Positions 4,069-24,424 of a DNA stretch of 64,000 bases are shown here, in pieces. Both the position numbers and the translations under genes were made by a program. How positions within the stretch are numbered: position 1 is the stretch's first letter; the number at the start of each line of letters is the position of its first letter. The DNA is from a virus (taxonomy: Duplodnaviria > Heunggongvirae > Uroviricota > Caudoviricetes > Herelleviridae). The stretch lies in the IMG/VR virus record IMGVR_UViG_3300020128_000040; one strand, given 5' to 3'. The notes beneath the pieces are model-generated. The model did not search any database, was not told where the DNA came from, and saw nothing but the letters and a program-made list of their open reading frames with translations.

Positions 4069-4154
4069 GACGAGGGCTCTCCTCTCGGATTTATGCCCTG
4101 GCAGGCCCGGCCCGCCCCGCGAGGGGGCAGGACGGGCGCCAGGGGGGGTCGGCT

Positions 4155-5846: not shown

Positions 5847-5932
5847 GGTCTGCCTCCTTCTGGGGCTCGATGTCATGGGCCGGGCGCGCCCGGCCCCAGG
5901 GGCGTCCCCACCCCCAGGGCCGAGCGGCTGGC

Positions 5933-7204
5933 TCAGGCGTTGATGCCGATCATGTTGGCGACCGGGCGGATGCGCTGCTCCACGATCGGGGCGTTGGTGT
6001 CCAGTGCCGCGCGGAGGTTGTCCTCGTTGAGGCCGCCGGAGGTCATCAGGCTGAGCAGCGTGGTGCCGTGGTCGGCCTCGAGCTGGTCGGTCTGCGCCAC
6101 GAGCTGGCGGATGATCGCGGTGTTGTCGGCCCCGTCGTAGATGGCGTAGACCAGCGCGCCGGACTTCTCACGGTCGTTCAGCTGGCTGATCAGGCCGTCC
6201 AGGGCGGAGTTGCTCCCCGCCGCGGCGAGGTCGTCCCAGCAGCCCGGGCGGGGCGCGGTGGCCTTGCGCGACTTGCCGCCGGCCGAGGCCTGGGCGAAGG
6301 ACGCGCCGATCTCCCCGATCAGCATTGTGGAGAAGGTGGTCAGACCGACGTGCGCCTCCACGATCTCGTGGAGCATCGTCACGCCGGTGCGGGCGCCGGC
6401 GTCCACCGGGGTCTGGAAGAGCTCCTTGAGCAGGTCGGGGTCGGCTTCGTCGAGGAAGTCGCTGATCGCCTCGATGGTGCGCGGCGTGGTCAGCTGCAGC
6501 ATCTCCTCGCCCGCGTCCATCAGGTCGGCGAACGTCGCGGTCTGCGAGTCGTCGTCGTCGTCGGAGCCGTCCACCGCGGTGAAGCTCAGCGGGGCGGACT
6601 TCTCGAACACCGACTCGGGGTTCTTCACCAGCACGGCGCGCACCCAGTCGTTCAGCGGCCGGGTGCCGTTGTCGCGGGAGTCGAGGTAGTCGATGACCGA
6701 CGGGGCGTCGGGCTCCACCTGGTACACGGCGAACCGGGACAGGCTGGCGTCGTCGAGAGCGACGACGTTGCCCTTGGTGTTGCCGGTCACCAGGATCTTC
6801 AGGTTGTCGGGGAGCACCTGGTCCCCGAGCTCGCGCTCGGTGGAGATGCTCAGCGCGCCCGAGGTCACGTCCGGGGTGGTCCGGTTGATCTCGTCCAGCA
6901 GGAGGTAGACGATGCTGCGCGGGTTGTCGTTGGCGTACTGCACGGCTGAGCGCACCTTGTGGTGCGCGAAGAACTTCTGCTCGAAGCTCTTCTTGTCCTC
7001 GGTCGGCACCAGGCGGGCGCCGGTCAGGTCGGCCTTGTCGGCCAGCTGGTTGACCTGCACGACGAAGCACTTGGAGTCGGTGGCGCGCGCCAGCGACTTG
7101 ACGATCGAGGTCTTGCCGATCCCGGGCTCGCCCGCCAGGAAGACGGTGTTGCCGGCGGCCATGTCGAGGCCGAGGATCTTGACGAAGGTGTCGGAGATCT
7201 TCAT
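5933..7204 (-). CDS. MoxR-family AAA+ ATPase
   Basis: GEPGIGKTS, LLLDEINR, TGN, SLSRF, TTPRT. Start MKISDTF at 7204. Confidence 0.88.
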   Translation of the reverse strand: MKISDTFVKILGLDMAAGNTVFLAGEPGIGKTSIVKSLARATDSKCFVVQVNQLADKADLTGARLVPTEDKKSFEQKFFAHHKVRSAVQYANDNPRSIVYLLLDEINRTTPDVTSGALSISTERELGDQVLPDNLKILVTGNTKGNVVALDDASLSRFAVYQVEPDAPSVIDYLDSRDNGTRPLNDWVRAVLVKNPESVFEKSAPLSFTAVDGSDDDDDSQTATFADLMDAGEEMLQLTTPRTIEAISDFLDEADPDLLKELFQTPVDAGARTGVTMLHEIVEAHVGLTTFSTMLIGEIGASFAQASAGGKSRKATAPRPGCWDDLAAAGSNSALDGLISQLNDREKSGALVYAIYDGADNTAIIRQLVAQTDQLEADHGTTLLSLMTSGGLNEDNLRAALDTNAPIVEQRIRPVANMIGINA

Positions 7205-8673: not shown

Positions 8674-8764
8674 GCCCGTCGCGCAGGACCCACGCCCCGG
8701 CGGCCACCAAGGCCACCAGGAGCAAGGCGCACAGCGAGATCGCGACGACCTGGGCGGCGCCCAT
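8540..8764 (-). CDS. possible small membrane protein
   Basis: ATG overlaps the primase stop (TGATG) and is followed by a hydrophobic run (VVAISLCALLLVALVAAGAWV). It overlaps the 3' end of the convergent hydrolase, so it is uncertain. Confidence 0.35.
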   Translation of the reverse strand: MGAAQVVAISLCALLLVALVAAGAWVLRDGPTRRAMRRRGLPAPRPARARRSRRSGSAAPGGSGAPRRARHRAR

Positions 8765-9771
8765 CAGCCCTCCTCCTCGGCCTCGGAGGCCAGGCGCTGG
8801 GCTATCAGGGCTGCGGCAGAGTTCAGCAGTAGCGGCATGCCGTTGCGGGCCTCGTCGTGCTTGGGGCGGTGCTCCAGCAGCGAGGCGGCCGCGTCGTAGA
8901 GCAGCCAGGTCAGGGCGCTCTCGTCGTATTCGTAGTCCGGCGTCACGGACTCTACGGCCTTGACGACATTGCGCAGGCGGTTGTAGAGCACGCCCAGCAC
9001 CGAGAACTCGAAGCGGGACATGTCCCCGCCGAAGTCGGCCGGGTCGCGCTTGTGGCCCCCGCGGGTGACGATCTCCAGGATCTGCTCGCGCCGCGGGACC
9101 TCGGGGCGCTCGGCGTCGATGTCGAGGTCGACCGTGAGCACCTCCACGGCCTGCGAGGCGACCTCCGCGTACAGGCCCTCCCACGAGGGCGCCGGGCCGG
9201 AGGCGGGTCCGAGCCCGGAGGTGTCGCCCACGGGTGAGCCGGTGAACGTGGCCCAGTGCTCGATGAGGACCTCCCACCAGCCCCGCGGGTGCTTGAGCAC
9301 CACCTTGGCGGCGGCCACAGGGAAGTCGTAGAAGTTCGTGGGTAGCGGCATCAGCAGGTGGAAGCCCTTGCCCGACATGGAGCGCTCGCGGTACAGGTCC
9401 CCGCCCATCGACAGCAGCCGGGCGGCCTCCCCCGGCGGGCAGGAGGACTCGATGTCGACCATGAGCACGCGGTCGACGGTGCCGCGCAGCCAGAACGCCC
9501 GGTTGGCGGCGCGCGGCAGGAAGTCGGTCAGCTCGTCGAGCGTGACGAGGCAGCGCTCGTCGGTGGCCCAGGCCCCGCGCACGGGGCCGTCGTGCTGGCA
9601 GCGCGACCCGCAGCCGTCCATCAGGTGGCGGATGTCGATCGGCCGCTTGGTCGAGTCCGAGACCGTCCAGCGGGGCTCTCGGCCGAGCTGGGCCACCGCG
9701 GGGTTGGTGTAGATCAAGGGGAGATCGGCTCGGGCGTCGTCCCCGGTGTAGTCGTCATGGGCGTTGGCCAC
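8764..9771 (-). CDS. AEP-superfamily primase/primase-polymerase-like protein
   Basis: hhhDhE motif (LMVDIES) and the ERSMSGKGFHLL (SxSGxGxH) motif. Confidence 0.75.
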   Translation of the reverse strand: MANAHDDYTGDDARADLPLIYTNPAVAQLGREPRWTVSDSTKRPIDIRHLMDGCGSRCQHDGPVRGAWATDERCLVTLDELTDFLPRAANRAFWLRGTVDRVLMVDIESSCPPGEAARLLSMGGDLYRERSMSGKGFHLLMPLPTNFYDFPVAAAKVVLKHPRGWWEVLIEHWATFTGSPVGDTSGLGPASGPAPSWEGLYAEVASQAVEVLTVDLDIDAERPEVPRREQILEIVTRGGHKRDPADFGGDMSRFEFSVLGVLYNRLRNVVKAVESVTPDYEYDESALTWLLYDAAASLLEHRPKHDEARNGMPLLLNSAAALIAQRLASEAEEEG

Positions 9772-9815
9772 AGGGCTGCCTCCTCGGCTTCTGAGAACGT
9801 GCGTGCTACGAAGAA

Positions 9816-9849
9816 AGCGGGGCCCGCGGCCGAAGCCGGGGACCCCGCT
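9816..9849 (-). terminator. probable intrinsic terminator
   Basis: AGCGGGG...CCCCGCT stem with a GCCG/CGGC inner stem, followed by CTTTCTT on the minus strand, just after the 9873 stop. Confidence 0.55.
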
Positions 9850-9872
9850 CTCTCATCATGGTGCGCCGGCGG

Positions 9873-10787
9873 TCAGCCGCCGAAGCCGATGCCCGGGCCG
9901 GCGGCGTCGCCCCACGGGTTGTCGCCCGCGTCGAACGCGGACTGGCCCTGAGGAGTGGCCTGCGCGGCCTGCTGGCGCTTGAGCTCGGCGAGCTGGCGCT
10001 CCAGGGCCTCCACGTCCGCCGAGGGGGCGGGCGCGGCCTGCTGCTGCACCGGCTGCTGGGCCGGGGCCGCCACAGGCGCGGGGGCGGCGAACGCGCCGGG
10101 GCCGGGGAGGGCGAAGCCCTCGTCGGTCACGACGGTGCCCTGCGGGAGGCCGCCGTCAGCGGCAGGGGCTCCGCCCTCAGGGGCCGCCGAGGGCGCGATG
10201 CGCTGGACCGGCCCGGAGATGACCACGCCGATCGCCGACAGCGCAGCGTTGTCCACGCCGCCGCCGCCGTAGTAGCGGGGCGCCTCGTTGAGGATGACCT
10301 GCTGCAGGCCGAGGCCCTTGTTGGCGTAGTCGCCCTGGGTGAAGGTGGTGAGCACCAGCGTCACGTCGAGCCCGGAGTCGAGGTCCTGGGGGAGCACGAG
10401 CTGGCGGTGGCTGCCGCTGCCGTCCCGCTCGTCGGCCGGGATCGGCTCGAAGACCGGGGGCAGGTTCGGCGACTTGTCGTCGATCGAGAAGCCGCGCTTG
10501 CCGGCGTTGTCGCCCTTCTTCACCTCGTAGATCTTGCTGTTGACGAAGATCTCCTCGGGGGTCGGGTTCTGCGCGTCCACGGGCACGACCGCCGCGTCGA
10601 TCAGCGAGATCGTGGTGTGCGGCTTGGTGGTCGGGTACTTCGAGCCCCGGGCCCGGGCCGCGGCGATCGACTTGACGAGTTCCTCGCCGTCGATGTGGCG
10701 GGTCAGGCGGGAGAACGAGATGCGCCCGCGCAGGAAGATGGTCTGGTTCTCGCGCAGCTGGTCCGCGCGTGGGACGGTGACAGTCAT
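9873..10787 (-). CDS. putative phage-type ssDNA-binding protein (gp2.5/DUF2815-like)
   Basis: Beta-rich N-terminal region ending NKGLGLQQVIL, an Ala/Pro/Gln linker and an acidic-aromatic tail (FDAGDNPWGD). Sits in a replication gene context. Confidence 0.55.
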   Translation of the reverse strand: MTVTVPRADQLRENQTIFLRGRISFSRLTRHIDGEELVKSIAAARARGSKYPTTKPHTTISLIDAAVVPVDAQNPTPEEIFVNSKIYEVKKGDNAGKRGFSIDDKSPNLPPVFEPIPADERDGSGSHRQLVLPQDLDSGLDVTLVLTTFTQGDYANKGLGLQQVILNEAPRYYGGGGVDNAALSAIGVVISGPVQRIAPSAAPEGGAPAADGGLPQGTVVTDEGFALPGPGAFAAPAPVAAPAQQPVQQQAAPAPSADVEALERQLAELKRQQAAQATPQGQSAFDAGDNPWGDAAGPGIGFGG

Positions 10788-10954
10788 CTGTGTCCTTCTT
10801 TCGGTGTGGTTGCTGATCAGTGGTTGCTGGTCAGTGGCGGCGTCCTCGGAGGTTTACCGAGGACCATGAGCTAGTCTATACTGAAACAGACTGCAATACG
10901 AGCAGAATCGACGTGTCAGCACAGACGGGTGCGAGCACAGGGAGGAAGGTCCCC

Positions 10955-11491
10955 ATGAGCGACCAGGAACGGCAGGCGGGAGGCGGCAGCCGCCCACGCC
11001 AGCCCCATTACGGGAGGGCGCCCATGACGGGCGCCATCTTCGCGACGGGGGCCCTCCTGGCCCTCGCCCTCGTAGGAGGCGCGGGGGTGGCACTCACCCT
11101 CGCGGAACCAGGCGCCCAGGCGGCGCCGAAGGCGTCGGCCAGCGCCGACCCCCCGGGCACGCAGGGCCCGGGCCCCACGCAGGAGCCCGGTGAAAACCCG
11201 ACGGACGGGCCCTCCCCGGAGCCGAGCCAGGAGCCAACCCAGCCCCCGGGTCACGATAGTGACCCGAAGGAGGAAGGCCCTGCCAAGCAGGAGGGGGACA
11301 CCATCCACCCGGTGGCCCCCGGCGACACCCTGTCCTCCATCTCGAAGGAGTACGGCGTCAGCGTGGACCAGCTCGTCAAGTACAACGAGATCGACGACCC
11401 CGACCTGATCTACGCCGGGTCGGCCCTGAGGGTGCCGTACCTGCTGATCCCCCAGGTCGACCCTGAGACCGGCGAGATCACCAGCCCCTAG
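10955..11491 (+). CDS. membrane-anchored LysM domain protein
   Basis: One TM helix, a Pro-rich linker and HPVAPGDTLSSISKEYGVSVDQLVKYNEIDDPDLIYAGSALRVP. Confidence 0.92.
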   Translation: MSDQERQAGGGSRPRQPHYGRAPMTGAIFATGALLALALVGGAGVALTLAEPGAQAAPKASASADPPGTQGPGPTQEPGENPTDGPSPEPSQEPTQPPGHDSDPKEEGPAKQEGDTIHPVAPGDTLSSISKEYGVSVDQLVKYNEIDDPDLIYAGSALRVPYLLIPQVDPETGEITSP

Positions 11492-11510
11492 AGGGGTACC
11501 GAGCGCATCC

Positions 11511-11544
11511 AGGCCCCGCCACCCCGTGAGGGAGGGCGGGGCCT
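11511..11544. terminator. hairpin between convergent genes
   Basis: AGGCCCCGCC...GGCGGGGCCT inverted repeat between the LysM and SNF2 stops. Confidence 0.6.
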
Positions 11545-11559
11545 TCTCGCGCCCGCGGG

Positions 11560-13365
11560 TCACAGCGGGCTGATGCCGAGGTCCCCCAGGACGTCCTCGA
11601 CGTCCTGGTAGTAGGCCGAGTCGTCGTGGCGCACGGCCTCCAGGAGGCCGTCCTGGACGCGCTTTTTGCGCTCCAGGGCCCACGGGAGGGTGGCGTCCTT
11701 GGTGCCCTTGGCGACCATCTGCATGACCTGGACGTGCTGCCCCTGGCCGATGCGGATCAGGCGGCCGTTGAGCTGCTGGTAGTGCTCCAGGGAGTCGGGC
11801 AGGGTGTACCACACCAGGGTGTGGCCGCCCGCCTGCAGGTTCAGGCCCGGCCCAGCGCTGCGCGGGTGCAGCAGCATGACCGGGATGGACTTGTCGTTCC
11901 ACGCCTTGACCATGGCGCGGGAGCCGTCGAACTTGACGACGTCGACCCCGTCCCTGGCCAGGGCCGCGGTGATGCGGTCGATCTCCGAGACGAAGCGGTA
12001 GGCCACGAGCACGTTGCTCGAGGCGTTGCCCACCAGGTGGCGGAGCATCTCCTCCTTCTCCTGGTGGATGACCGCGTAGCCGCCAGCGTCGTCGGTGTAC
12101 ATCGTCCCCGAGGCGAACTGCACGAGCTTGCCGTGCAGGATGCCCGCGTTGTCGGCCGTGATGACCAGGCGCGAGGGGTCGTTGGGGTGCGGGGAGGCGA
12201 GCTCCAGCACGCGCTCCTTGACGAACTCTTTGTAGGCGTCCATGACGTCGCGCGGCAGGGTCACGTTGACCGTGTCGATGGAGAACGGCGGCATCGGGAT
12301 CGAGGTGTTCTCCGCGCTCATGACGAACGGGGCGACCAGCTCGTAGATCTGCTTGTCCGCGCCGGGCAGCAGCTCCCACTTCACCGGCCGGCCGTCGACG
12401 TGCATCGTCGGGGTGAAGAAGCGGGCGCGGTACTGGGTGTAGGTGCCCAGGGTCTTGCCCTGGTCGATCAGGTAGATCTGCGCCCACAGGTCGAGCATCG
12501 ACTGCGGCGACGGCGTCCCGGTCAGCTCGACCAGCCGGTCGATCGCCGGGCGGACCCGCTTGAGGGCCTTGAACCGCTCCGAGGAGGGGTTCTTCATGTT
12601 CTGGGACTCGTCGATGATGACCGTCGGGAACGGCCACTGCACGGCGTCGCGGTACTTCTTCCTCCCATTGGCGTAGACGCCGTCCTCGACCCGCACGACG
12701 GGCATGCGGTCCACCAGGCCGGCCTGGCACTCGCGGCAGCCCTTGCCGCCGCAATGGCGGCAGTCGACGGGGCGCACGGCGATGGTGCCGGCGTCCTTCA
12801 GCTCCTTGATGCGGCGCATCACCTCCGCTTTCGTCAAGGGCTTGCCCTTGGGCGGCTGGGGGCCGGCCGCGGCGCGGACGGCCTCGACCAGCTCGGCCTG
12901 CGGCACGGGGCCGGAGGCCACCAGCGGGTCGAGCACGCTCAGGTGGCGGGGCTCCAGGGGCGAGGGCGGCGGGCCGACGGGCACCACGAGGTGCTCGGGG
13001 CGGGAGGGCTGCACCAGCAGCTCCTGGTTGATGAAGTACATGGTGGGCGGGTCGGTGAACACCTCGTCGAAGGCGCGCAGGCGCGCCTCCTTGGACAGCG
13101 GCACGTCGTCGGCGTCCACCAGCAGGCTCTTGGTGCGCAGCGGGAAGCCCCACTTGTCGATCTCGTCGAGCCAGGTCGAGCGGGCGATCGCCAGCGGGGC
13201 GACCACCAGGATGTGCCCGGCCGGGCGCACCTGCGCCAGCGCGGCCAGGGTGGACAGGGTCTTGGCCCCGCCGATGCCCAGGAACACCCCGCAGTGGGGG
13301 CGCGAGACGATGAAGTCGCGCGCCATCTGCTGGTGCGGCATCAGCTCCGGTACCTTGAAGGCCAT
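11560..13365 (-). CDS. phage-type SNF2/SF2 helicase
   Basis: LMPHQ, GIGGAKT, ILVVAPL, VIIDESQ, LTGTP, DLWAQ, GLNLQ and QLNGRLIRIGQ motifs. Confidence 0.9.
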   Translation of the reverse strand: MAFKVPELMPHQQMARDFIVSRPHCGVFLGIGGAKTLSTLAALAQVRPAGHILVVAPLAIARSTWLDEIDKWGFPLRTKSLLVDADDVPLSKEARLRAFDEVFTDPPTMYFINQELLVQPSRPEHLVVPVGPPPSPLEPRHLSVLDPLVASGPVPQAELVEAVRAAAGPQPPKGKPLTKAEVMRRIKELKDAGTIAVRPVDCRHCGGKGCRECQAGLVDRMPVVRVEDGVYANGRKKYRDAVQWPFPTVIIDESQNMKNPSSERFKALKRVRPAIDRLVELTGTPSPQSMLDLWAQIYLIDQGKTLGTYTQYRARFFTPTMHVDGRPVKWELLPGADKQIYELVAPFVMSAENTSIPMPPFSIDTVNVTLPRDVMDAYKEFVKERVLELASPHPNDPSRLVITADNAGILHGKLVQFASGTMYTDDAGGYAVIHQEKEEMLRHLVGNASSNVLVAYRFVSEIDRITAALARDGVDVVKFDGSRAMVKAWNDKSIPVMLLHPRSAGPGLNLQAGGHTLVWYTLPDSLEHYQQLNGRLIRIGQGQHVQVMQMVAKGTKDATLPWALERKKRVQDGLLEAVRHDDSAYYQDVEDVLGDLGISPL

Positions 13366-13700
13366 CAGTCGCCCCCCTCCTGCGCCCCGCGGGCGCGCTC
13401 CATGTCGTCGATGAGGGCGTCGACGAGCTCGTCGACCTGCTCCCTGGTGAAGGCGAGGTGGACCTCGCCGCCGGAGGAGCGGATCTCCTCGTGGCGCACC
13501 AGCTGCAGCTTGCTGGGGCGGCCGTCTCTGGCCTTGGTCTCCACGAACACCGTGCGGCCCAGCACGACGACCCGGTCGGGCACGCCGTTGGTCACGGACG
13601 CGGAGAACTTGTAGCAGCAGCCGCCAGCGGCCTTCACACGGGCCACGAGGTAGTCCTCGACCCTGGCCTCAGCCTTGCCCATGGGGGCCTCCTCGCTCAT
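13365..13700 (-). CDS. VRR-NUC domain nuclease
   Basis: E..VE..L, GVPDR, FVETK and SKLQ motifs. Translationally coupled to the SNF2 gene, a common phage pairing. Confidence 0.9.
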   Translation of the reverse strand: MSEEAPMGKAEARVEDYLVARVKAAGGCCYKFSASVTNGVPDRVVVLGRTVFVETKARDGRPSKLQLVRHEEIRSSGGEVHLAFTREQVDELVDALIDDMERARGAQEGGD

Positions 13701-13748
13701 TTAGGGCGGGCCCCGCGAGGGGGCCGCGCCATCGGCCGGACTCGGGCG

Positions 13749-16700
13749 CTACGCGGCGCCGTTCATCCAGTTCTTCTCATAGGTGTCGGCGAGTAGCTCG
13801 ACGTACACCCCGAGGTCCAGGCAGCCGAGGAGGTCGCGCAGGCGCGCCTCCCCCATGCAGTGCAGGTCCTCGTTCACGACCAGCGCCGACCACGAGGGGT
13901 CGATGCTGTTGATGCGGCGCACCGCGACGTCCTGGTCCACGGGCAGGAGCGTGAAGCCCTCGTCCGAGGCCTGCGAGACACGGCGGGTGAAGCCGTTCGC
14001 CTCCAGGATCTGCATCGCCACCGGGTCGTCGGAGACGGCCTGCAGGCCGTTCTTCTGCCGGTTCAGGCGCGTGGCCGGGTTGATGACCCACGCCCCGGCA
14101 GAGCGCAGCGACACCGCCCCCGGCTTGCCGGGGTGCACGTAGAACACGCGGTTGTGGTGCTGCAGCGGCCGGGCGTTCGTGATGCCCTCGTCGTCCGCCC
14201 CCGCCTGGGGGACGGGGTCAGAGGCGAACGGGATCGTGATCTTGCCGTTCGACGACGCGATCATGTTCTGGAACAGGCGCGCGGCCAGCACGCCGTCCTC
14301 CAGGTCCCGGGCCTCGAGCATCAGCCGCAGGGCCAGCTCGCGGTCCAGTGGCTCCTCCAGGGAGACCGGCCCCTTGCGCCCCTTGGGGGTGTAGCCCCCG
14401 GCGATGTAGCGCAGGTACCGGGCCAGCGCCCAGTCCAGCACCGCGGGGTGCGCCAGCGCCTTGTCGGGGCGGGGCCCCTCGTAGCACGCGAGCGTGCCGC
14501 CTGAGGCGTCGACGATCCTCGCCTCCCACGGCTCCTGGCCGTCGGCCGGCGGGCGCATCTCCAGCCGGTTGTTGGAGTCCTTGGACACGATGACCAGGGG
14601 CTCCGGCTCGATCTCGACGTTGATCAGCGCCTGTTGCTCGGCGAGCACGCGGTTGTTGGTCTCCTCGTCCAGGACGGAGTAGAGGCCGTCGGTGTTCGTG
14701 GAGATGATCCGCCCACCCGCGAGGGTCTGGGCCTGCCCGATGCGCCAGGAGAACAGCTGCCCGATGATCCGCATCGAGATGATCTGGTTGTTGACGCGGA
14801 TCGGCGAGTTGCCGAACGTCGTGTCACCAGCGCCCGAGGCGGAGTTCAGGATCAGCTTGGTCCCGTTGCGGAGCACCTTGAGGCGCTCGACCTCGTCGCG
14901 CGAGAGCGACGGGTCCTTCATCATGACGCCGTACCTGTCCTTGTCGGCCAGGATCTTGGCGTAGCGGTCCTCCCCGAGGTCGGGGTTGTAGAACGCGCTC
15001 ATGTTGCGCAGCATGTTCGGGTAGTACGAGGTGAAGTCCTCGTGGATCGCAGCGCCCGCGGAGGTGTGGGTGTACTTCGCCTTTAGCTTGTTCGACCTGT
15101 CGGGGGACGGCTCAAACAGCTCGGGCCGCTTGGGGCCCGGCTTCCAGCCCACGCCCGGGAACCGCGACTCGACCTCGGCCACGTCGGCCGGGTCGGGGTC
15201 GGGGCCCAGGGCCGTGATGGCCTCCGAGCGCTCCTTGAGCGCTTTGATGGTGCTCTTGGAGGTCAGCACGTCCTTGTAGGGAACGATGGCGGTCGAGCCG
15301 TCGGGCATCGGTACCTCCATCTCCTTGGCCAGGCGGATCGTGAGCGGGTCGGGCGACACGGCCCTCACCGCCTCGATGAACGCCTGCCACTGGTGCCACT
15401 CGGCCGAGTCGGCCTCGTAGGCGGCCACATCCGCCTCAGCGCCGTGGATGCCCCCGGTCGAGAACGTGGCGAAGCACGTGCTTGGGGAGCCGTCGGCGTT
15501 GAAGTAGGGGATGTTGTTCGGCCGCTTGGGCACGTCCTTGAGGACGTGCGGCGGGTGCTCCGCCAGGCTGTAGGTGTCCGCGTACTCCTGCGAGTCGTTG
15601 AAGTTCAGACCCTCGATCGACCTGTAGTACTGGTAGACCTCGTCGAACTGGGCCCGGGCCGAGGGGTCGGCCACGTGCTCGTAGAAGAAGTCGCGGCAGT
15701 CCTCCAGGACGTTGCGGCGCTCCACGCCGCGCTCGGCGGCCACCTGCTCGGAGGGGTAGAGGAACGACACCGCGGGGATGTCGGTCAGCTTCCCGTAGGG
15801 GCTGAGGATCTTGCCCACGAACTTCGCGGACGTCGAGTCCGGCGCCAAGCGGTCGCGGCGCACGGCCTGCGGGCGCACGTCGGGGCGGTGGGTCCCGCGC
15901 ACCGGCTGGTACACGGTCTCCGGGTACTCGTCCAGCAGGCCCTTCTTCAGGTCGAAGCCCGACGCGTAGGTCGGGTGCTGGGCCAGCTGGGCCAGGCCTA
16001 CGACGTCAGAGACGTTGTAGGCCAGCAGCTCGTAGAGGTCCTGCGCCGAGGCGATCCGCGCGTTGTGCGAGCCGAGGCGGTCCGACTCCAGGATCTGGCG
16101 GCCCTGGCCGCCCAGGAGGCGCTTGAGGCCGATGCGGCGCTGCACCTCGTTGAGCATGGCGATGTCGATGTGGCGTCCCGAGTGCAGGAACGCCTGGCGG
16201 ATCTTGTTCGCCGAGGAGTTCCAGCCCTTCGACCCGGCGACGGAGCCGTCGGTCAGGTAGCGGGGCATGTACTCCTTGAAGGCCGGGGAGAACAGCTGGT
16301 CGTTGTGCCGGCGCATGCCGGCGGCGGTCACCGGCCGGAATAACGCGGGGGCGTCCTGGGGGCGGCCGTCATGGACGGCCCTGGCCAGGTCGACGAAGGC
16401 CTCCATGAAGTACACCGCGAGCATCGTGGTGTCGTAGTTGTAGGAGTTGTACCCGGCCAGGTAGGGGTGCTGGCCCAGCGGGTCGTACCCGGGGTCGGTG
16501 TCGCACACCGGGCGCAGCCACGGGCCGTAGCTGGAGGGCGAGCCCGGGTCGTTGACCGAGTCGGCGTCCGACAGGCCGAAGACCTGGGCCAGGCGCTGGT
16601 TACCGCGCCACTCGCGCAGGTCGTAGGCGACCATGTGCCGCGGGGCGCCGGGGCGGTCCTGGTAGGACGGGTTGCGCTCGGCCACCACGTCCGCCAGCAC

Positions 16701-16868
16701 GGCGATGTCCACCTCGATCGAGGGGTCGTCCAGGAGGTAGAAGACCTCCAGCACGTTGGTGCGCGGGTTGTAGGAGCACAGCGTGAAGGCGTTCTGCAGG
16801 CTCTCGATGTCGTAGTAGGTGAACAGCGCGTTGCGGCTGGTCACCGGGGTCTTCCCTGGGCTCGTCAC
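13749..16868 (-). CDS. family B DNA polymerase with 3'-5' exonuclease (NTDG-type)
   Basis: ExoI YDIES, ExoII GYNSYNYD, ExoIII YNVSD; TGGIHG; motif A DFTSYYP; motif B KLILNSASG; motif C STNTDG. GTG start at 16868 has an AGAGGAG RBS and a GTGA overlap with the upstream stop. Confidence 0.88.
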   Translation of the reverse strand: MTSPGKTPVTSRNALFTYYDIESLQNAFTLCSYNPRTNVLEVFYLLDDPSIEVDIAVLADVVAERNPSYQDRPGAPRHMVAYDLREWRGNQRLAQVFGLSDADSVNDPGSPSSYGPWLRPVCDTDPGYDPLGQHPYLAGYNSYNYDTTMLAVYFMEAFVDLARAVHDGRPQDAPALFRPVTAAGMRRHNDQLFSPAFKEYMPRYLTDGSVAGSKGWNSSANKIRQAFLHSGRHIDIAMLNEVQRRIGLKRLLGGQGRQILESDRLGSHNARIASAQDLYELLAYNVSDVVGLAQLAQHPTYASGFDLKKGLLDEYPETVYQPVRGTHRPDVRPQAVRRDRLAPDSTSAKFVGKILSPYGKLTDIPAVSFLYPSEQVAAERGVERRNVLEDCRDFFYEHVADPSARAQFDEVYQYYRSIEGLNFNDSQEYADTYSLAEHPPHVLKDVPKRPNNIPYFNADGSPSTCFATFSTGGIHGAEADVAAYEADSAEWHQWQAFIEAVRAVSPDPLTIRLAKEMEVPMPDGSTAIVPYKDVLTSKSTIKALKERSEAITALGPDPDPADVAEVESRFPGVGWKPGPKRPELFEPSPDRSNKLKAKYTHTSAGAAIHEDFTSYYPNMLRNMSAFYNPDLGEDRYAKILADKDRYGVMMKDPSLSRDEVERLKVLRNGTKLILNSASGAGDTTFGNSPIRVNNQIISMRIIGQLFSWRIGQAQTLAGGRIISTNTDGLYSVLDEETNNRVLAEQQALINVEIEPEPLVIVSKDSNNRLEMRPPADGQEPWEARIVDASGGTLACYEGPRPDKALAHPAVLDWALARYLRYIAGGYTPKGRKGPVSLEEPLDRELALRLMLEARDLEDGVLAARLFQNMIASSNGKITIPFASDPVPQAGADDEGITNARPLQHHNRVFYVHPGKPGAVSLRSAGAWVINPATRLNRQKNGLQAVSDDPVAMQILEANGFTRRVSQASDEGFTLLPVDQDVAVRRINSIDPSWSALVVNEDLHCMGEARLRDLLGCLDLGVYVELLADTYEKNWMNGAA

Positions 16869-17164
16869 GGGGAGCTCCTCTCTTCGGGGGCCCTCGTCCA
16901 GGGGCCGAACAATGCTGTCACGGGCGCCCATGAGGCGCCCCTCGTCTCGCCGGAGGCGTCGGTCCAGGAGCCGTCGGCCCCCAGGACCCAGGGGTCGCCC
17001 TCGCGGTCGAGCCACACCCCCGGCTCGGAGGGGACCCCGCCGTCGGCGACCCGCTGGCGCAGGGACTCGTCCAGCCGGTCGCGGCCGGGGCCGTCGAGGC
17101 CCTCGGGGTAGGCCTCCTCGGGCAGGAGCCTGGCGGCCGCCGGGCCTGTGTCTGTCTGGGCCAT
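16865..17164 (-). CDS. hypothetical protein, coupled to the polymerase
   Basis: AAGGAGG RBS, 99 aa, Trp-rich (WLDREGDPWVLGADGSW), GTGA overlap with the polymerase start. Confidence 0.7.
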   Translation of the reverse strand: MAQTDTGPAAARLLPEEAYPEGLDGPGRDRLDESLRQRVADGGVPSEPGVWLDREGDPWVLGADGSWTDASGETRGASWAPVTALFGPWTRAPEERSSP

Positions 17165-17181
17165 GAGGGCCTCCTTCCTGG

Positions 17182-18876
17182 TCATGCGAACGGGTTCTCC
17201 CACGGCTTGGGCGGCTCGGGCTGCACCAGCGCCGCCACGGCGGCGGCAGGGGCGTGCTGCTGGGGCTGGGGGGCCCCGACGTAGCGCTGCAGCCCCCGGT
17301 ACATGCTCGCCGTCGCCGGCTGGCACAGCTTCGCCGGGTCGTTGCCCGTGTAGGAGGGCGACTGCCACGACTTCAGGTCGTAGGCCATGATGAGCAGCTC
17401 CGGGGCGTCCATCTTCGAGCCGGTCCGCACCTGGGCGGAGCGGTCGGCGCAGTACCACCCCGAGGAGGGGTCGACCACGGACACGAGGTCCTTGATGAAC
17501 ACGTTGCGCCCCACCGGGGAGCCCGAGGGGTTGGACCTGGCGAACCAGGACTTGTACAGGTCGTACAGGAACGCGAAAGGGAGCAGGTCCCACACGAAGT
17601 CCTCGTGGAGCTCCTCCCAGAACGCGCGGATCGGGTCGTTGAACTCCTTGTACTCGGCCAGCACGCGCCCGACGGCGTCGGGCTCGGACAGCGAGTAGTA
17701 GTCCATGTGCAGGACGCGCTTGAGCACGTAGCGCAGGACATCGGGGTGCGAGACGTACTCGTCCTTGATGTAGCGGCGCTCGTGGCCGGTGAAGCACTTC
17801 TCGAACGGCACGAACAGCTGCCGGCGGTAGAAGCTCTCGGAGCGGTCCTTGATCCGCGGGAACTCGTTCAGGCACTGGACCATGAAGCCCCAGAACTGGT
17901 ACGAGATCGGCGTCTTGTACTTGCGGTTGATCATCAGCACGTCGTTCGTGATGATGGCCTTGAGGTTGGCGGCCTTGTCGATGAACAGGCCGACGTCGTT
18001 TTCGTCCACGATGATCGCCGAGGCGCGGGTCAGGGGCTCCAGCATGAAGTCCTTGCCCATGTCCGCCAGCGGCAGCGAGGTGTGGGCCCCGGGGCCGCAC
18101 AGGTTGCGCATCAGCGCGACCAGGGTCCCCTTGCCGTTGTTGCCCCGCTCGGAGTAGAACCACGCCGACTTGTTCCAGCGCACGTGGGGGCGGATCACCG
18201 CGCCCACGATCTGCCAGAGCAGCTCGACGACCTCGGGGTCGTCGGACAGCGTCCCCATCCACTCCTCGACCTCCCAGGTGTCGCCGTCCGGCGTGTCGAA
18301 CACCGGGGAGACGGCGGCAGGGTCGTAGTCGACCGAGCTCTTGGACAGGAAGACGAGGTCCGGGGAGAACGGGAGCAGCTTCTTGGCCGCGTAGTCGAAG
18401 ACCCCGTTGCCCACGGCGATCAGGTCGCGGTCGGCGCAGCGGTGGACCCGGGGCGCCTGCTCGCGCAGCACGGCGAAGACCTCCTTGGCCCCGTTGATCG
18501 TCAGCTCACGGTTGTAGGCGCGGGCGATCGAGCGGATCTCCTCCTCGGCCGTCAGGTAGACGCCCTGGGAGGGGCCGGAGGCCGAGTAGACGGCCAGCAG
18601 GTCGTAGTCGGGGTCGGTGTTCTTGCCCGAGGGCGCGATCTTCACCACCCGGTGCAGGTGCACCAGGACCTGGGCCACCTGGGAGAAGGTGAGGGTCTGC
18701 AGCAGCGTGATGCGGTGCTTCGGGTCCCTGCCGGCGTTCTCGATCACGAACTCGGCGTTCGTCAGATCGAGCAGCTCGTTCTCGACCTGCTTGGCCGGCG
18801 GCGGGGACGAGGGGTCGAGCCCCTCGAGGTAGGAGGTTGTCACCTCCTGCACTATCTGGTTCTGTGGCTTTGCCAT
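17182..18876 (-). CDS. SF3 (D5/P4-type) replicative helicase
   Basis: D5_N-like DLIAVGNGVFD...FSPDLVFLSK; Walker A ERGNNGKGT; Walker B IIVDEND; motif C CLNEFP; FYRRQLFVPF. Confidence 0.88.
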   Translation of the reverse strand: MAKPQNQIVQEVTTSYLEGLDPSSPPPAKQVENELLDLTNAEFVIENAGRDPKHRITLLQTLTFSQVAQVLVHLHRVVKIAPSGKNTDPDYDLLAVYSASGPSQGVYLTAEEEIRSIARAYNRELTINGAKEVFAVLREQAPRVHRCADRDLIAVGNGVFDYAAKKLLPFSPDLVFLSKSSVDYDPAAVSPVFDTPDGDTWEVEEWMGTLSDDPEVVELLWQIVGAVIRPHVRWNKSAWFYSERGNNGKGTLVALMRNLCGPGAHTSLPLADMGKDFMLEPLTRASAIIVDENDVGLFIDKAANLKAIITNDVLMINRKYKTPISYQFWGFMVQCLNEFPRIKDRSESFYRRQLFVPFEKCFTGHERRYIKDEYVSHPDVLRYVLKRVLHMDYYSLSEPDAVGRVLAEYKEFNDPIRAFWEELHEDFVWDLLPFAFLYDLYKSWFARSNPSGSPVGRNVFIKDLVSVVDPSSGWYCADRSAQVRTGSKMDAPELLIMAYDLKSWQSPSYTGNDPAKLCQPATASMYRGLQRYVGAPQPQQHAPAAAVAALVQPEPPKPWENPFA

Positions 18877-19179
18877 TTCATGCCTTTCGGGTGCCCTTGT
18901 GCCGCAGCAGCGGCGGGCGTGTGTCGTGGGAGTGCCCTAGTCCGCTGGCGAAGCAGAAGAATCGTCGCATACGATCCTACCTCATCAGACGACGGGACGG
19001 GGGGCCTGCCCTCTTTCCGGGAGGCGTGGTCGGCCTCGCAGCACCGGGGGAGTACGAGGCATCGCCAGTACGACCCCCGGTGCGCGCTCCGCGCGCATCG
19101 TCCAGGAAGGCCTCCGGCGCGGGAGGGACCAGGGCCTCCTAGCAGCAGGAGGGGCACCGCCCCTCCAGTCGTCAGCACA

Positions 19180-19710
19180 GGCGAATGGCCTGGTCAGAGT
19201 GGGAAGACGTGTGGCAGCCGGGCTGGCCGCTCGTGGAAAAGGGCTGATCAGAGGGGTGATCGTCCTCCCGTGTCGCGGTTGTCGCGCTTCTTGCCAAAAA
19301 AAGCGCGACACAAGAAACCCCTGGTCAGCGGCTGGAAACGACAAAGCTGTCACGGATCTCTTTTCTAAAAGTGTGACAGTATAAATACCTGGTCACAGAT
19401 ATGAAACACGTCCTGTGTCGCGGTTGTCGCGGTTCTATACGACCTTTACATGCGTGCACGCATGCGCACACGCATACGATGAGTTTTACGAAAAAAAGCG
19501 AGACAACCGCGACAAACGCTGTTCTTGGTGTGCTGACCAGGGAAAAGGGGTGTCGCGCTTTTCCTCGGGCGATTTCGAGAAGTGTGACGCTGTTTCTGGA
19601 ATGTGCTCCTGACCAGGGATTCCCCTCCTGGGGGCTGTCGCGGTTCTCAGACCCCAAAAGCGCGACACGATTTCAGTGAAGATACGTCTGACCAGGGATT
19701 CCCTCTGCAT
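19180..19710. repeat. mirror-symmetric repeat array, candidate replication origin
   Basis: TGTCGCGGTTGTCGC at 19271 and 19416, inverted at 19498-19514; CCTGGTCA copies on the left and CTGACCAGGG at 19533/19609/19688 on the right; A-tracts. Non-coding and immediately upstream of the SF3 helicase. Confidence 0.7.
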
Positions 19711-19822
19711 GAGTCCGCCGGACCCCTCGACCACGTGCCGGTGCCCGGCGGCGAAGCGAAGGCCCCGGTCCCAGCGACAGGGTCGCCAGGGCCGGGGCCA
19801 TCACGGTCAGGGAGCGGGCCTC

Positions 19823-20497
19823 TCAGCCAGCGGCGGGGCACTGCGCCCAGATGCCGCGGGAGGCGGCCTGGGCCTCGGACTGCTCGGCGGCGTACTCGTC
19901 GCCGTCGGCGTGCGCCAGGCCCTCGGACACGAGGCGGGCGCCCAGGGGCGACCCGTCCACGGCCAGGGCCATGTAGCGGGGGCCGTCGGGTTCGATGGCG
20001 GCGTCCACCTCGGCGGCGGTGGCCTCGAAGACGTAGGTCGGCAGGACCTCCTCGCGCACCTGCGGGCCCCAGACCAGCCCGGCCTCCTGGCCGTGCAGCT
20101 GGTTGAGCAGCGCCACGGCGCCGTCGTAGGACGCCTCAGCGCCGCACTGGCCGGTCTCCGGCGCCTTGACGCCGGACACGCGGACGAGCCACGTGCGGTC
20201 GGAGCGCTCGTACGGCTCGGTCGAGCCGTCGGCCATCACGGCTTCCACGACCCGCAGGTCGAGGGCGTCACTCCAGCGCAGGTCCACCAGCGCGAGCCGG
20301 TAGGACACGGGCGCCTGCTCGGGCGCCTCGGCGCTCGGGGACGGTGACGGGGTCGCCATGACCTCCTGGGAGGCCTTGGTCGGGGCGGGGGTCGAGGCTG
20401 GCGCCTCGGGGGACCCCTGGCCCGCGCACCCGCTCAGGAGCACGGCTCCGACGGCTACTGCGGCCAGGGACTTGATGACGGTGTTCACAAGGGACAT
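19823..20497 (-). CDS. lipoprotein with thermonuclease (SNase)-like fold
   Basis: Lipobox LLSGC; VRVSGVKAPE..QCGAEA; LVSEGLA; EAQAASRGIWA. Confidence 0.7.
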   Translation of the reverse strand: MSLVNTVIKSLAAVAVGAVLLSGCAGQGSPEAPASTPAPTKASQEVMATPSPSPSAEAPEQAPVSYRLALVDLRWSDALDLRVVEAVMADGSTEPYERSDRTWLVRVSGVKAPETGQCGAEASYDGAVALLNQLHGQEAGLVWGPQVREEVLPTYVFEATAAEVDAAIEPDGPRYMALAVDGSPLGARLVSEGLAHADGDEYAAEQSEAQAASRGIWAQCPAAG

Positions 20498-20757
20498 GTC
20501 GGGTCCCTCCTCTCTAGGCTCTTGCGGCGAGCTGGCGCCGCTCGTAGAATGGGCTGCAGTGCATCGGGTGCACGAAGTGGCGACTGACAGTCGTTCGGGA
20601 GGGGTCGCCGTGGGAGGCGGCCCCTCCCTTCACATTTCACAGGGGGAGGGCGCCGGCATGGCGCCTGGCAAGCCCCCTGGGGGCGGTGCCGCGGGTGGCT
20701 CCGCCGGAAGGGCCAGGGGCGCTGTGGGCCCCGGCTCGGGCATATAGGTCGAGCATC

Positions 20758-21099
20758 TCACCTGGCGCCCGCACGGGCCGGCAGCGCCTCGCCGACGGCA
20801 CGCGGGCGCTCGACGACGTAGACGACGTCGAGCACGAGGTCGCGGCGGCCGCCGACGGCGACGACGCTGCGGTCGATGCTGAGCACCGACAGGCGCTCGG
20901 TGCGCTGGAAGAGCTCGTGGGTCGAGCGGATGCGCGCCTGCAGCGCGGCCTCGCTCTTCGCCGAGATGCGGATGCGGTGGTAGGAGCCCTCGTCGAGGGT
21001 CACCGGGCTGTTCCACAGCGGCACATTCAGCTTCAGGTCAATGGGCAGCGGGGCCTGGAGGCGCCCCGCAGAGTCGTACTTCACACGTCCGATGATCAT
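20758..21099 (-). CDS. hypothetical protein
   Basis: AGGAAGGAGG RBS before MIIGRVKYD; 113 aa. Confidence 0.7.
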   Translation of the reverse strand: MIIGRVKYDSAGRLQAPLPIDLKLNVPLWNSPVTLDEGSYHRIRISAKSEAALQARIRSTHELFQRTERLSVLSIDRSVVAVGGRRDLVLDVVYVVERPRAVGEALPARAGAR

Positions 21100-21355
21100 C
21101 TGGACCACCTCCTTCCTCTCGCTCCGCGGGCCCCCTCGTGGGGCCTCCTCGCGGGAGAGCACCAAGCTCTCACCCAACCACCCGGACGACCGGCGCGAGC
21201 CTCGGTCGTCCACCAGCCGCGAGCACAGACAAGCCCAAGACTACCGGCCGACCACGTCGGCACGGTAGGCTTGCAAGTGCGTATCCGTTGGAAACCCAAC
21301 GGAACACGCTTTTGAGAAGGACTCACGGACCGACAGCAGGAAGGAACGATCAGGG

Positions 21356-21667
21356 ATGCAGAAGGACACGATCACGGAAAGGCTCGCGGCAGCGGAGGGC
21401 GAGCTGCGCTCGCTGCGCGAGGACATCGAGGCGGGCGCCGCCCCGCAGGGCGGCACGCAGGCGTTCGCCGACGCCCAGATCAGGGCGTTCGGCTCCTGGG
21501 TGCTGGACCTGCTCGGCTTCGAGGGCGAGGACGCCTTCGACAACGTCGGCGAGGCCAGGACCCTCCTGGTCCCGCTCATCGCCAAGGGCCGCCCCCGCGA
21601 GGACGCCGGCTCGGCTGACGACGACGCGGGGGACGGCTTCGTGGACATCTTCGCCGACGAGGACTAG
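21356..21667 (+). CDS. hypothetical acidic protein
   Basis: AGGAAGGA RBS, N-terminal coiled coil, acidic C-terminus. Confidence 0.7.
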   Translation: MQKDTITERLAAAEGELRSLREDIEAGAAPQGGTQAFADAQIRAFGSWVLDLLGFEGEDAFDNVGEARTLLVPLIAKGRPREDAGSADDDAGDGFVDIFADED

Positions 21668-22443
21668 CCCTCGTCCGGGCCGGCCACCTCGAGCAGGGCC
21701 ACGACAGGCATCGCCGCAGCCAGCACGAGCAGGGCGATGGCGGCGGGGTGGGCGGCCAGGGCGATGACCTGGGACGGCACCGCCAGGGCGGCCAGGTTGA
21801 ACAGCGCGTGGCCGGCGACGACCACCCACAGCCTGCGGCCGAAGGCGGTGTAGACGGCGCACAGCACCAGCGCCATCGGCAGCGTGGCCGCGACCTGCAC
21901 GATGTTGCCGTGCAGGAGCGCGAAGAGCGCCGACGAGGCCACCGCGGCGGCCCACAGGGGCCACACCCTGGAGAGGCGGTCGTAGAAGATACCCCTCATC
22001 AGCGCCTCCTCGCCCACCGGGGCGAGCAGGAGGGTGGTGAGCAGCACCAGCCACACCGGGGCAGAGCCCATCGTCTCGCGGGACAGGTCGTAGGTCGGCG
22101 AGCCGAAGCGCGCGTAGAGCGCCACGGCGAGGCCCTGGCCCAGCAGGAACGCCCCGGCGAGGGCGCCCACGGCCAGCAGCCACGGCCTCAGCGAGCCCCG
22201 CGCGGCCACAGGCAGCGACCCGGGGGCCCGGAACGACCCCGTCGAGAGGCGCTTCACGGCGGCGAAGCAGGCCAGCGCCGCCACGGACGACCCGGCGGCC
22301 CCGGCGACCGGGGAGCCCGTGAAGTACACGACTCCCAGGCCCGCCAGGGCGTACACGGCGAACGACCCGACGAGGGCCGCGACGACCCCCATCGGGCGCC
22401 CCAGGAGCCGGGCGGCGCGGCCCTCTTTGCGGTTATCAGCCAT
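21664..22443 (-). CDS. CPBP (CAAX/Abi) family intramembrane metalloprotease
   Basis: APVGEEALMRG, SSALFALLHG and HALFN motifs with multiple TM helices. Confidence 0.9.
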   Translation of the reverse strand: MADNRKEGRAARLLGRPMGVVAALVGSFAVYALAGLGVVYFTGSPVAGAAGSSVAALACFAAVKRLSTGSFRAPGSLPVAARGSLRPWLLAVGALAGAFLLGQGLAVALYARFGSPTYDLSRETMGSAPVWLVLLTTLLLAPVGEEALMRGIFYDRLSRVWPLWAAAVASSALFALLHGNIVQVAATLPMALVLCAVYTAFGRRLWVVVAGHALFNLAALAVPSQVIALAAHPAAIALLVLAAAMPVVALLEVAGPDEG

Positions 22444-24424
22444 CACTGCCCTCCTCCACGAGCCTCTCGACGGTGAACTGCGGGGACTCCATGCCCTGGA
22501 ACGAGTTGATCGAGAGCTTGGCCCGCACGCGGATGACAGCCTCGCCAGGCACGGGCGAGGCGGCGCGGTCGCGTAGCTCGTCGGCGTGCTCGGCAGCGCC
22601 CCACCACAGGATCTTGAGGCCCGCCTGGGTGACCAGGCGCAGGTGGGAGCGGTCGGAGCCAATCACGTCCACCCGGCACGATGCCAGGTTCAGCACCAGC
22701 TCGAACTCCGGGACGGGGAAGGCGTGGCCGAACGGGCGGGCGTCCTCCAGGGTGAGGCCCATGTCGAGCAGCTCCCCGGGGTCGTCCATCGGGGCGTCGC
22801 AGTCGGGCGACGGCCCCAACCGCAGGGCGGGGGCGCCAGCCTCGTCCAGCGAGCCGTCGAGCCGCTTGGCCTCCAGCACGGCGTTGGCCGCGTCCCGCAG
22901 GGCGGCCGCGAACGCGGCCACGTCGGCCTCGTCGCGCATGCGCACCCCGCAGGCCTGCTCGTGACCCACGGCGGTGAAGCCGGCGGCGGTCATCGTGGTG
23001 ATGACCTGGAACCACATCGGGGCGCGGGCGGAGCCGCCACGGCGGGCGGAGGGGTCGTCGGAGGCGCCGACGACCACCACGGGCATGCCCGTCTCGGACA
23101 TCAGGCGGGAGGCGAGCAGGCCCATCATCCCGGTGGGGGCCTCGGTCGACCACACCCACGGGGCGTACGGCTGGGGCGCCGCGAGCAGCTCCTCCATGTA
23201 CGCCTCGGTCCAGGCCTTGCGCAGCTCGTTGCAGTCGAGCACGGCCTTGGCGTGCTCGAACTTGGCCTCGGGCGTCGGCGCCGTGAAGACCCCGAAGGCG
23301 TCGGCCATCGAGCCGCCCACGCGCCGGATGGCGTTGAACGCCGGCGACAGGTAGAAGGCGTAGAACTCCTCGTTCAGCGACGACACGCTGCGCAGCTTCC
23401 CGGGCCGGCGCTCGAACACGGGCTCGCCGTCGTCGCCGACGACCTGGTCGCCGTCCTCGTCGAGGACAGGCACCAGCGGGCCGTGCTCGCGGAAGGCGCG
23501 CAGAGCCAGGGCGAAGCCCTCGAAGGCGCCGAGGAACGGCGTCGAGTGCTGCCTGGAGAGCAGCAGCGACATGAGCATCGACGTCTCCACCTCGTACGGG
23601 GTGGCGAGGTCGGCCGCGGGCAGCGGCACGTACAGCATGCGGGCGATCGCGAGCGAGTCGCGGACCAGCTGGCGGTTCTCGTACAGCAGGGGCATCACGT
23701 CGGAGACGGTGCCGATGCCAGCGAACAGCTTGAGCAGGTCGATGTCACGGCTCTTGTGCGGGGCGTAGCGCCGCGCGTAGGCCGCGAGCACCTGCCACAG
23801 CACGAAGGCGCCGCAGATGCCAGGGTGCGGGTAGTTCTCGTCGATGCGCATCGGGTTCACGATCACGTCGGCGGGCGAGCCGTGGTCCAGCTGCATGTGG
23901 TGGTCGGTCACCAGCATCGTCAGGCCCAGCTGCTTGCCGCGGCCGATGCCCGCGTGGGAGTTGACGCCCCCGTCGCAGGTGATGACGGCGGACACGCCGG
24001 GGAACTGGGCGACCAGCTCGTCCACGGCCTCCGGCTGGATGTCGTGGCCGCGGCGGTAGTCGGGCACGTAGAGCCCGACGTTGAAGCCCAGCTCGGCGAG
24101 CCCGGCGTAGCCGAGGACGCCGGAGGTCACGCCGTCCATGTCGAAGTCGGGCAGCACGACGATGCGGCGGCCGGAGGAGCGGATCTCGTGCAGGGCGTCG
24201 ACCATCAGGCCGATGTCCTTCAGCTCGGGGTAGTACGGGTCGTTGATCTCGGCGATGTACTCGTCGGTCCAGCCCAGGCTCTCGCGCAGCAGCCCGAACA
24301 GCGACGAGCCGCGGTCGGAGGGGATGAAGATGATGGGCTCGGGGGCGGGCCCCCCGGGCAGCGCCCCCATCAGCGGGGCGGTGAGCTCGTCGGGCTCGAC
24401 GGGCTCGGTCACGGTGTCGGCCAT
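22436..24424 (-). CDS. recJ: RecJ-like DHH exonuclease
   Basis: DFDMDGVTS, ITCDGG, VTDHH, YPHPGICGA, GTVSDVMPL..ENR, GSAR, GHEQACG motifs. Confidence 0.88.
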   Translation of the reverse strand: MADTVTEPVEPDELTAPLMGALPGGPAPEPIIFIPSDRGSSLFGLLRESLGWTDEYIAEINDPYYPELKDIGLMVDALHEIRSSGRRIVVLPDFDMDGVTSGVLGYAGLAELGFNVGLYVPDYRRGHDIQPEAVDELVAQFPGVSAVITCDGGVNSHAGIGRGKQLGLTMLVTDHHMQLDHGSPADVIVNPMRIDENYPHPGICGAFVLWQVLAAYARRYAPHKSRDIDLLKLFAGIGTVSDVMPLLYENRQLVRDSLAIARMLYVPLPAADLATPYEVETSMLMSLLLSRQHSTPFLGAFEGFALALRAFREHGPLVPVLDEDGDQVVGDDGEPVFERRPGKLRSVSSLNEEFYAFYLSPAFNAIRRVGGSMADAFGVFTAPTPEAKFEHAKAVLDCNELRKAWTEAYMEELLAAPQPYAPWVWSTEAPTGMMGLLASRLMSETGMPVVVVGASDDPSARRGGSARAPMWFQVITTMTAAGFTAVGHEQACGVRMRDEADVAAFAAALRDAANAVLEAKRLDGSLDEAGAPALRLGPSPDCDAPMDDPGELLDMGLTLEDARPFGHAFPVPEFELVLNLASCRVDVIGSDRSHLRLVTQAGLKILWWGAAEHADELRDRAASPVPGEAVIRVRAKLSINSFQGMESPQFTVERLVEEGSDG

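Follow-up and report, generated by a model that had tools for sequence, protein, structure and literature searches.

The stretch analysed here is a 64,000-nt window (the whole piece of DNA under study) of IMG/VR record IMGVR_UViG_3300020128_000040, which is filed as a virus, and our subject is a replication block of ~16 kb within it (8764-24424). We favour, with some reservation, the reading that this block is the vegetative replicon of a ~142-kb circular conjugative element from a Micrococcales-type host. A broader proposal, to which we give even chances, is that the element represents a large, so far unrecognised class of conjugative megaplasmids and ICE-like (integrative and conjugative element-like) elements, found in both Actinomycetota and Bacillota and counting pGKT2 and probably CGP3 among its members. 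Their phage-type replisome, free of Rep and clamp, would be based on an undescribed group of family B DNA polymerases (PolB) and would be independent of host DnaA, DnaB, DnaG and Pol III. The elements themselves are known, and it is their replication module that appears undescribed. The starting point is what was observed directly, namely the gene identities, the motifs, the conserved gene order and a repeat cluster beside the helicase gene. A preliminary description had listed an AEP primase, a single-stranded DNA-binding protein (SSB), SNF2, VRR-NUC, PolB, a superfamily 3 (SF3) helicase, a repeat region and RecJ in this block, and all were found to be real, the AEP being likely only.

The SF3 helicase (17182-18876, minus strand, 564 aa) is of the P4 alpha/D5 type. 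It matches TIGR01613 with 168 bits, against a cut-off of 108.7, as well as D5_N, DUF5906 and Pox_D5, and it carries a Walker A variant (GNNGKGT), DEND and the motif C Asn, conserved among homologues. Its C-terminus corresponds to the Pox_D5 winged helix, and no fused primase domain is found within the 564 residues. The protein is likely an initiator-helicase. Upstream of the gene, a candidate origin (19189-19707) consists of TGTCGCG and CCTGGTCA boxes that point both ways and surround the lowest-GC part of the window (47.5%). The longer form TGTCGCG(G/C)TT occurs nine times between 19271 and 19667, again in both orientations and interleaved with the CCTGGTCA boxes; these are all the copies in the window, in which 0.39 would be expected.

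The position of the cluster recurs in most of the relatives tested. In two whole elements, of 126 kb (G006) and 251 kb (G007), the strongest non-coding 7-mer cluster lies no more than ~1 kb upstream of the SF3 gene. The same holds for the top repeat cluster in L004, L006, L031 and L094 and in the gut elements L018, L024, L028 and L035, the distances to SF3 being ~0.4-1.2 kb over all of these. The repeat motifs of the relatives are lineage-specific, though TGT-type. A cluster that keeps its position while its sequence diverges is the pattern expected of an origin bound by the helicase, and D5/P4 helicases bind origins via a C-terminal winged helix (PMC4889955). From the conserved position and the winged-helix domain we infer that the SF3 helicase binds the candidate-origin repeats. 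GC skew in three circular relatives gave no clear pointer to the candidate origin. Two SF3 helicase genes were seen in Firmicutes-like elements (G007, at 128390 and 218237; G001, contig C8).

The divergent PolB is encoded at 13749-16868 (minus strand, 1039 aa). The preliminary description had rightly recognised a proofreading-type polymerase but placed the start of the reading frame too far upstream, at 17015. The sequence has no match in Pfam, NCBIfam or PDB and a partial, weak match to a PHROG polymerase family (phrog_1252, E 1e-17); with the Pfam, NCBIfam and PDB searches empty, the identity came from structure alone. The AlphaFold model (predicted local distance difference test score 91.7) matches family B polymerases along its entire length. 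Foldseek retrieved Pol alpha (E 2.5e-9), and in a VIA comparison (Z 12.3, root-mean-square deviation 6.5, 489 residues aligned) 18 of the 19 top rows were PolB entries by title, phi29 Pol scoring below the RNA-primed PolBs (Z 8.6). The catalytic acids of the exonuclease motifs ExoI-III (YDIE, GYNSYNYD and YNVSD) are intact. Motif A reads DFTSYYP, motif B KLILNSASG and motif C STNTDG; the latter two are non-canonical yet fixed in the family, Tyr being replaced by Ser, Ala or Thr and the first Asp missing. KDSNNR takes the place of KxY, with the family variants KDSNNR, KDANNR and KDTNNR. The protein begins directly with the exonuclease domain, lacking an N-terminal domain, and ExoIII and motif A are separated by ~320-340 residues (median 341). 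The catalytic motifs of both activities are kept across 143 family representatives. Model and motifs together confirm the gene product as a family B polymerase with predicted proofreading. At E < 1e-30 the family comprises 353 clusters at 50% identity, and no such group is named in the main text of the 2020 PolB classification (PMC7544198). The family is large and uncharacterised, and a candidate for a clamp-free processive enzyme.

The remaining members of the block are encoded on the minus strand as well. The 335-aa product of 8764-9771 is likely a stand-alone AEP primase or primase-polymerase of the NrS-1/Prim-Pol-like type. It has no Pfam, PHROG or PDB match, and a profile run against PDB and Pfam was likewise empty; the ESM Atlas, however, places it near Prim-Pol/NrS-1-type clusters (features 0.96-0.98, TM score 0.58), and the motifs D106-x-E108, S131-x-S-G-x-G-x-H138 and E167/H172 are invariant in 13 homologues. 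The gene is conserved in 12 of 16 relatives. The SSB (9873-10787, 304 aa), an OB fold with a long flexible tail, is of the T7 gp2.5/Enc34 type; its predicted fold matches DUF2815 (Z 8.2), T7 gp2.5 (Z 8.0) and the Enc34 SSB (Z 6.8), the next match scoring 4.8. These are followed by a phage-type SNF2-family helicase/translocase (11560-13365; PF00176, phrog_62 E 7e-105), a VRR-NUC nuclease with a PD...E-x-K motif (13365-13700; phrog_93 E 4e-25) and, beyond the candidate origin, the 5'-3' ssDNA exonuclease RecJ (22436-24424) with DHH, DHHA1 and RecJ_OB domains.

Two assemblies bear on circularity, a point raised in the preliminary description. The PolB gene was found on a European Nucleotide Archive (ENA) contig of 142,171 bp (ERZ27245367, k141_157792), and a Logan contig of 142,060 bp carries the same stretch, yet terminates within the window. 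The Logan run possibly belongs to the same sample set as the ENA contig; the assembly is separate. Assembly at k=31 leaves an overlap of 30, and once the overlaps are subtracted both contigs give the same length (142,171 - 141 = 142,060 - 30 = 142,030 bp). This agreement, with the Logan contig ending inside the window, indicates a circularly permuted molecule, and the source element appears from its contigs to be a ~142-kb circle. The closest named polymerases, at 62-63% identity, are those of Cryobacterium, Plantibacter and Microbacterium, so the host is probably a member of the Micrococcales. The stretch was found in metagenomes of ants and in some wastewater runs, and contigs of an RNA run span it including the non-coding repeats; these are contigs only and no measure of expression. 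Codon-based gene calling gave 69 genes at 85% coding and 70% GC. The absence of a recognisable virion gene from the 64 kb, noted previously, was borne out: for 51 otherwise unannotated open reading frames (ORFs) no virion family was found in Pfam (all 15 families listed) or among the 25 PHROG families listed out of 43, and there is no terminase in the window.

PolB matches were found in three complete plasmids (a 639-kb Streptomyces plasmid, Gordonia pGKT2 and Rhodococcus pGS01), in agreement with the earlier suggestion of a megaplasmid, and in 23 IMG/VR contigs, many of them circular and of 105-250 kb. The relatives comprise actinobacterial and Firmicutes-like elements and Clostridia metagenome-assembled genomes (MAGs). 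The family is not confined to the actinobacterial, extrachromosomal elements proposed before: it also includes chromosomal copies and Firmicutes-like and Clostridia members. Between elements of 70% and 43% GC the order RecJ-ori-SF3-PolB-VRR-NUC-SNF2-SSB-AEP-MoxR-vWA-Clp-UvrD is kept, and in most relatives the gene that immediately follows the helicase is that of PolB. Conjugation genes, which had been proposed for inspection, were sought in the relatives: the MobL relaxase scored over the cut-off in 8 of 8 and a type IV coupling protein (PF12696) was present in 20 of 22. Terminases (PF03354 and PF03237) were found in 0 of 22 and the HK97 capsid (PF05065, one capsid family and not all) in 0 of 11, the positive controls scoring in both searches. 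Together these counts argue for a conjugative element and not for the phage-plasmid that had been considered. In a quick tree (midpoint-rooted, no bootstrap) the window PolB is bracketed by conjugative elements. Tyrosine integrases (PF00589) and large serine recombinases (PF07508) were absent from all eight circular relatives searched, Rep3_N from five relatives, and Replicase wherever it was tested. Many of the IMG/VR records G006-G024 (L017-L039) are scored as 100% complete viruses; they carry relaxase and coupling protein and lack a terminase, and by their gene content look like misfiled conjugative elements. In three Clostridia MAGs (L002, L003 and L005) there are no close SF3, AEP or SSB homologues to accompany PolB, whose copy in L003 lies among housekeeping-like genes.

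The closest described relative is pGKT2 of Gordonia sp. KTR9 (NC_018580, 182 kb), known for the degradation of hexahydro-1,3,5-trinitro-1,3,5-triazine (RDX). It has the same backbone in the same order, sharing with the window RecJ, SF3 (54%), PolB (38%, annotated as hypothetical), SNF2, SSB and AEP, and further MoxR, vWA, Clp, UvrD, RarA and ParM. Its full gene list contains a MobL relaxase and a coupling protein and no virion module, and transfer of the plasmid into Gordonia, Rhodococcus and Nocardia has been reported (PMC5640721). It differs in a longer PolB (1299 aa), a weak repeat cluster, an extra ParA and a probable second replicon. No description of its replisome was found in the literature searched. 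CGP3, a cryptic prophage of Corynebacterium glutamicum (187 kb), is integrated and described as a prophage, unlike the source circle. It encodes the primase cg1959 and the Lsr2-like silencer CgpS (PMC5137423); once excised, its circular form is amplified, ~10-fold on mitomycin C (PMC5137423, PMC4446434). With pGKT2 it has in common the alpAC arrangement of the actin AlpC (PMC4446434). A C. glutamicum control genome scored for MobL, TIGR01613 and phrog_1252, matches whose location in CGP3 and orthology are presumed; no named Corynebacterium protein was among the best 120 hits of the pGKT2 polymerase. The control matches and the alpAC literature suggest that CGP3 probably belongs to this element family.

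We propose that the SF3 helicase would bind the two-way repeats by its winged-helix tail, in the manner of P4 alpha and D5 proteins, open the low-GC core and unwind the DNA, giving Rep-free theta replication. The separate AEP would lay primers and the T7-type SSB coat the strands, while PolB would elongate and proofread, its large insertion perhaps standing in for a clamp. RecJ would trim 5' ends, and SNF2, VRR-NUC, RarA and UvrD would handle fork repair and resolution. The host would still supply ligase, topoisomerases and probably Pol I; a classical Rep initiator, DnaB, DnaG and Pol III would not be required, which would help replication in new hosts after transfer. The preliminary description had called the replisome self-contained. 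An own polymerase, helicase, primase and SSB are indeed encoded, but that term is too strong, as neither a beta clamp nor Pol III alpha was found in five relatives or in the window.

The conserved motifs, gene order and repeat position described above favour the block as a working replicon, as does the apparent circularity of the source element. The strongest argument is that circular relatives have no integrases, none of the Rep families that could be tested with controls, and neither Pol III nor a clamp, yet keep the block and its repeat array. Every virus that encodes a polymerase also has a helicase, and almost every one a primase (PMC4889955), and the same trio is present here. Several observations weigh against this reading. 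In pGKT2 the repeats form a weak cluster only, in L093 (Plantibacter) the cluster is displaced, and in L098 it is missing upstream of SF3. Rhodococcus pGS01 has PolB, SSB and AEP but no SF3 helicase, so its replication must start by other means; a 425-aa protein near its parA was not identified as a Rep. Beside parA of pGKT2, an unannotated 646-aa ORF (L015:2418-4358), common to 21 smaller Gordonia-type plasmids, is probably the Rep of rep_cluster_394, to which pGKT2 is typed, and a likely second replicon. Chromosomal copies of the module exist in Streptomyces and Nocardioides (chromosomes of 9.8 and 6.2 Mb), and three Clostridia MAGs have PolB without a close SF3 or AEP. No clamp was found in the window or in the relatives tested, and searches for RepA_C and RepA_N, run without a positive control, were uninformative.

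An alternative that we consider possible, though clearly weaker, is that the replisome is conditional: it would amplify the circle after excision or an SOS response, or copy the incoming single strand and establish the element once conjugation has taken place, with routine upkeep left to integration or a host-dependent Rep. The integrated, silenced CGP3 with its circle amplification suggests such use after induction or transfer; chromosomal copies exist, several relatives have Lsr2 genes on the flanks of the module (none was recognised in the window), and the PolB, AEP and SSB that pGS01 keeps without the helicase are the subset suited to second-strand synthesis. Something must, however, maintain the eight circular gut elements, which have neither integrases nor the tested Rep families, and the origin-like array beside the helicase gene also speaks for a vegetative replicon. 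It is improbable, in our estimate, that SF3 and AEP merely initiate at the repeats for host Pol III to elongate, with PolB, RecJ, SNF2, VRR-NUC and RarA as a repair and recombination kit. Small plasmids do replicate by a P4-family primase-helicase alone, as the 5-kb plasmids of Streptococcus thermophilus, and the partnerless PolB of the Clostridia MAGs, the unencoded clamp and the non-canonical motifs B and C, which resemble those of some damage-tolerance PolBs (PMC7544198), would fit. But the exonuclease motifs are intact, unlike those of the translesion B2/G2 group (PMC7544198), piPolB is an efficient replicase although it too lacks the first Asp, and PolB directly follows the helicase gene in most relatives.

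That the element is a prophage of the usual kind, or a phage-plasmid, with its virion genes in the 78 kb of the source contig beyond the window, is largely refuted, and we regard it as very improbable. SNF2, VRR-NUC, SF3, T7-type SSB and WhiB are common in phages, and 23 relatives are filed in IMG/VR. Against this stand the terminase and capsid searches with their scoring controls, the relaxase and coupling protein of the relatives, and the fact that neither PolB nor AEP has a match in 50,697 phage records.

The proposed replicon resembles several named systems in part. P4 alpha-type origins have short repeats in both orientations. P4 alpha/D5-type replicons share with the window an SF3 helicase with a C-terminal winged-helix origin-binding domain (PMC4889955); the window element differs in its separate AEP gene, own polymerase and SSB, conjugative nature and more than 10x larger size, and a P4 alpha-type fused primase-helicase was rejected because the helicase has no primase domain. 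HelPrimPolB of Lactococcus phage 1706-like phages comprises the same SF3, AEP and PolB trio and the same weak phrog_1252 match. Here, in contrast, the three are separate ORFs without virion genes, and two 1,300-aa helicase-primase-polymerase fusions are not picked up by the profile of the PolB family, so this identity was discarded. Two ~1,300-aa HelPrimPolB-like fusion genes (L079 and L080) were noted in MAG G001. Pipolins, too, are mobile elements of bacteria and not viruses; they encode a PolB of their own, and its motif C is likewise missing the first Asp. PolB of the window has STNTDG instead of SxTTDG and KDSNNR instead of KH-x8-KTRG, which excludes a piPolB, and, unlike pipolins, the elements have a dedicated primase, helicase and SSB, a conjugation module and sizes of 100-640 kb. 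Bifidobacterium pMP7017 is also a large conjugative actinobacterial plasmid, but depends for its replication on iterons and a Rep_3-type RepB (PMC8313286), in contrast to the five relatives without Rep3_N. No description of the replisome or of the PolB family was found in the literature searched, which mostly excluded subscription papers.

Within this family the design of the replicon would be unusual. As a rule a conjugative plasmid supplies an initiator and relies on the replication fork of its host, whereas a family with its own helicase, primase, SSB and proofreading polymerase would follow a different plan, one that could explain a broad host range and that Pfam, NCBIfam and replicon typing have missed. 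It further points to CGP3 and a number of the 'complete viruses' in IMG/VR as conjugative elements. As pGKT2 and CGP3 reside in tractable strains, the claim is directly testable.

Other genes within the 16 kb are not replicative: a LysM protein (11024-11491, plus strand), which several relatives have in the corresponding place, a probable lipoprotein, and a CPBP (Rce1-like) intramembrane protease (21664-22443, minus strand) kept beside recJ. A small ORF without assigned function (16865-17185, minus strand) lies between the helicase and polymerase genes. On the other side of the AEP gene, a conserved minus-strand block (2119-7204) encodes a MoxR AAA protein (5933-7204), a vWA-like protein (4155-5846) and a Clp-type double AAA protein (2119-4068). 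It always comes after the AEP gene in relatives and may be a chaperone or remodeller of replication proteins. A UvrD-like SF1 helicase (3-2018, minus strand) is truncated by the window start.

Of the functions that had been named elsewhere in the window, RarA/MgsA (29837-31132, minus strand) and a ParM/AlpC-like actin (42545-43789, plus strand, 43% to its pGKT2 homologue) are present alongside UvrD, as is a bacterial-type second SSB (54808-55314, minus strand), a weak match (E 0.001) whose pGKT2 homologue carries a ssDNA-binding annotation. A class F-like sortase and a 1953-aa antigen I/II-type adhesin (44875-51847, plus strand), a pair also found in the circular relative G006, are consistent with conjugation and mating-pair adhesion. 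A second repeat cluster of the GGTACC type (37492-37716, six copies, both orientations), possibly a parC of the ParM system or a second origin-like site, lies inside a 2-kb non-coding gap. Five copies of GAGCGNAGCGA were found in the non-coding gap (36017-36257 and 37369; six in the window against 0.49 expected), a motif that we take to recall single-strand initiation or oriT-adjacent motifs of plasmids. Matches obtained in alignment mode were assigned to genes by sequence inspection for a WhiB regulator (32689-32913), a SpoT-like HD hydrolase (37844-38560), a probable Panacea/SocA antitoxin (56313-56786) and a 5'-deoxynucleotidase-like HD protein (27097-27711). Finally, an RNA-repair cluster (57132-61277) comprises a 767-aa kinase-phosphatase-RNA ligase fusion (phrog_8238, E 1e-91), a tRNA-Arg(CCT) and an RlaP-like nucleotidyltransferase.

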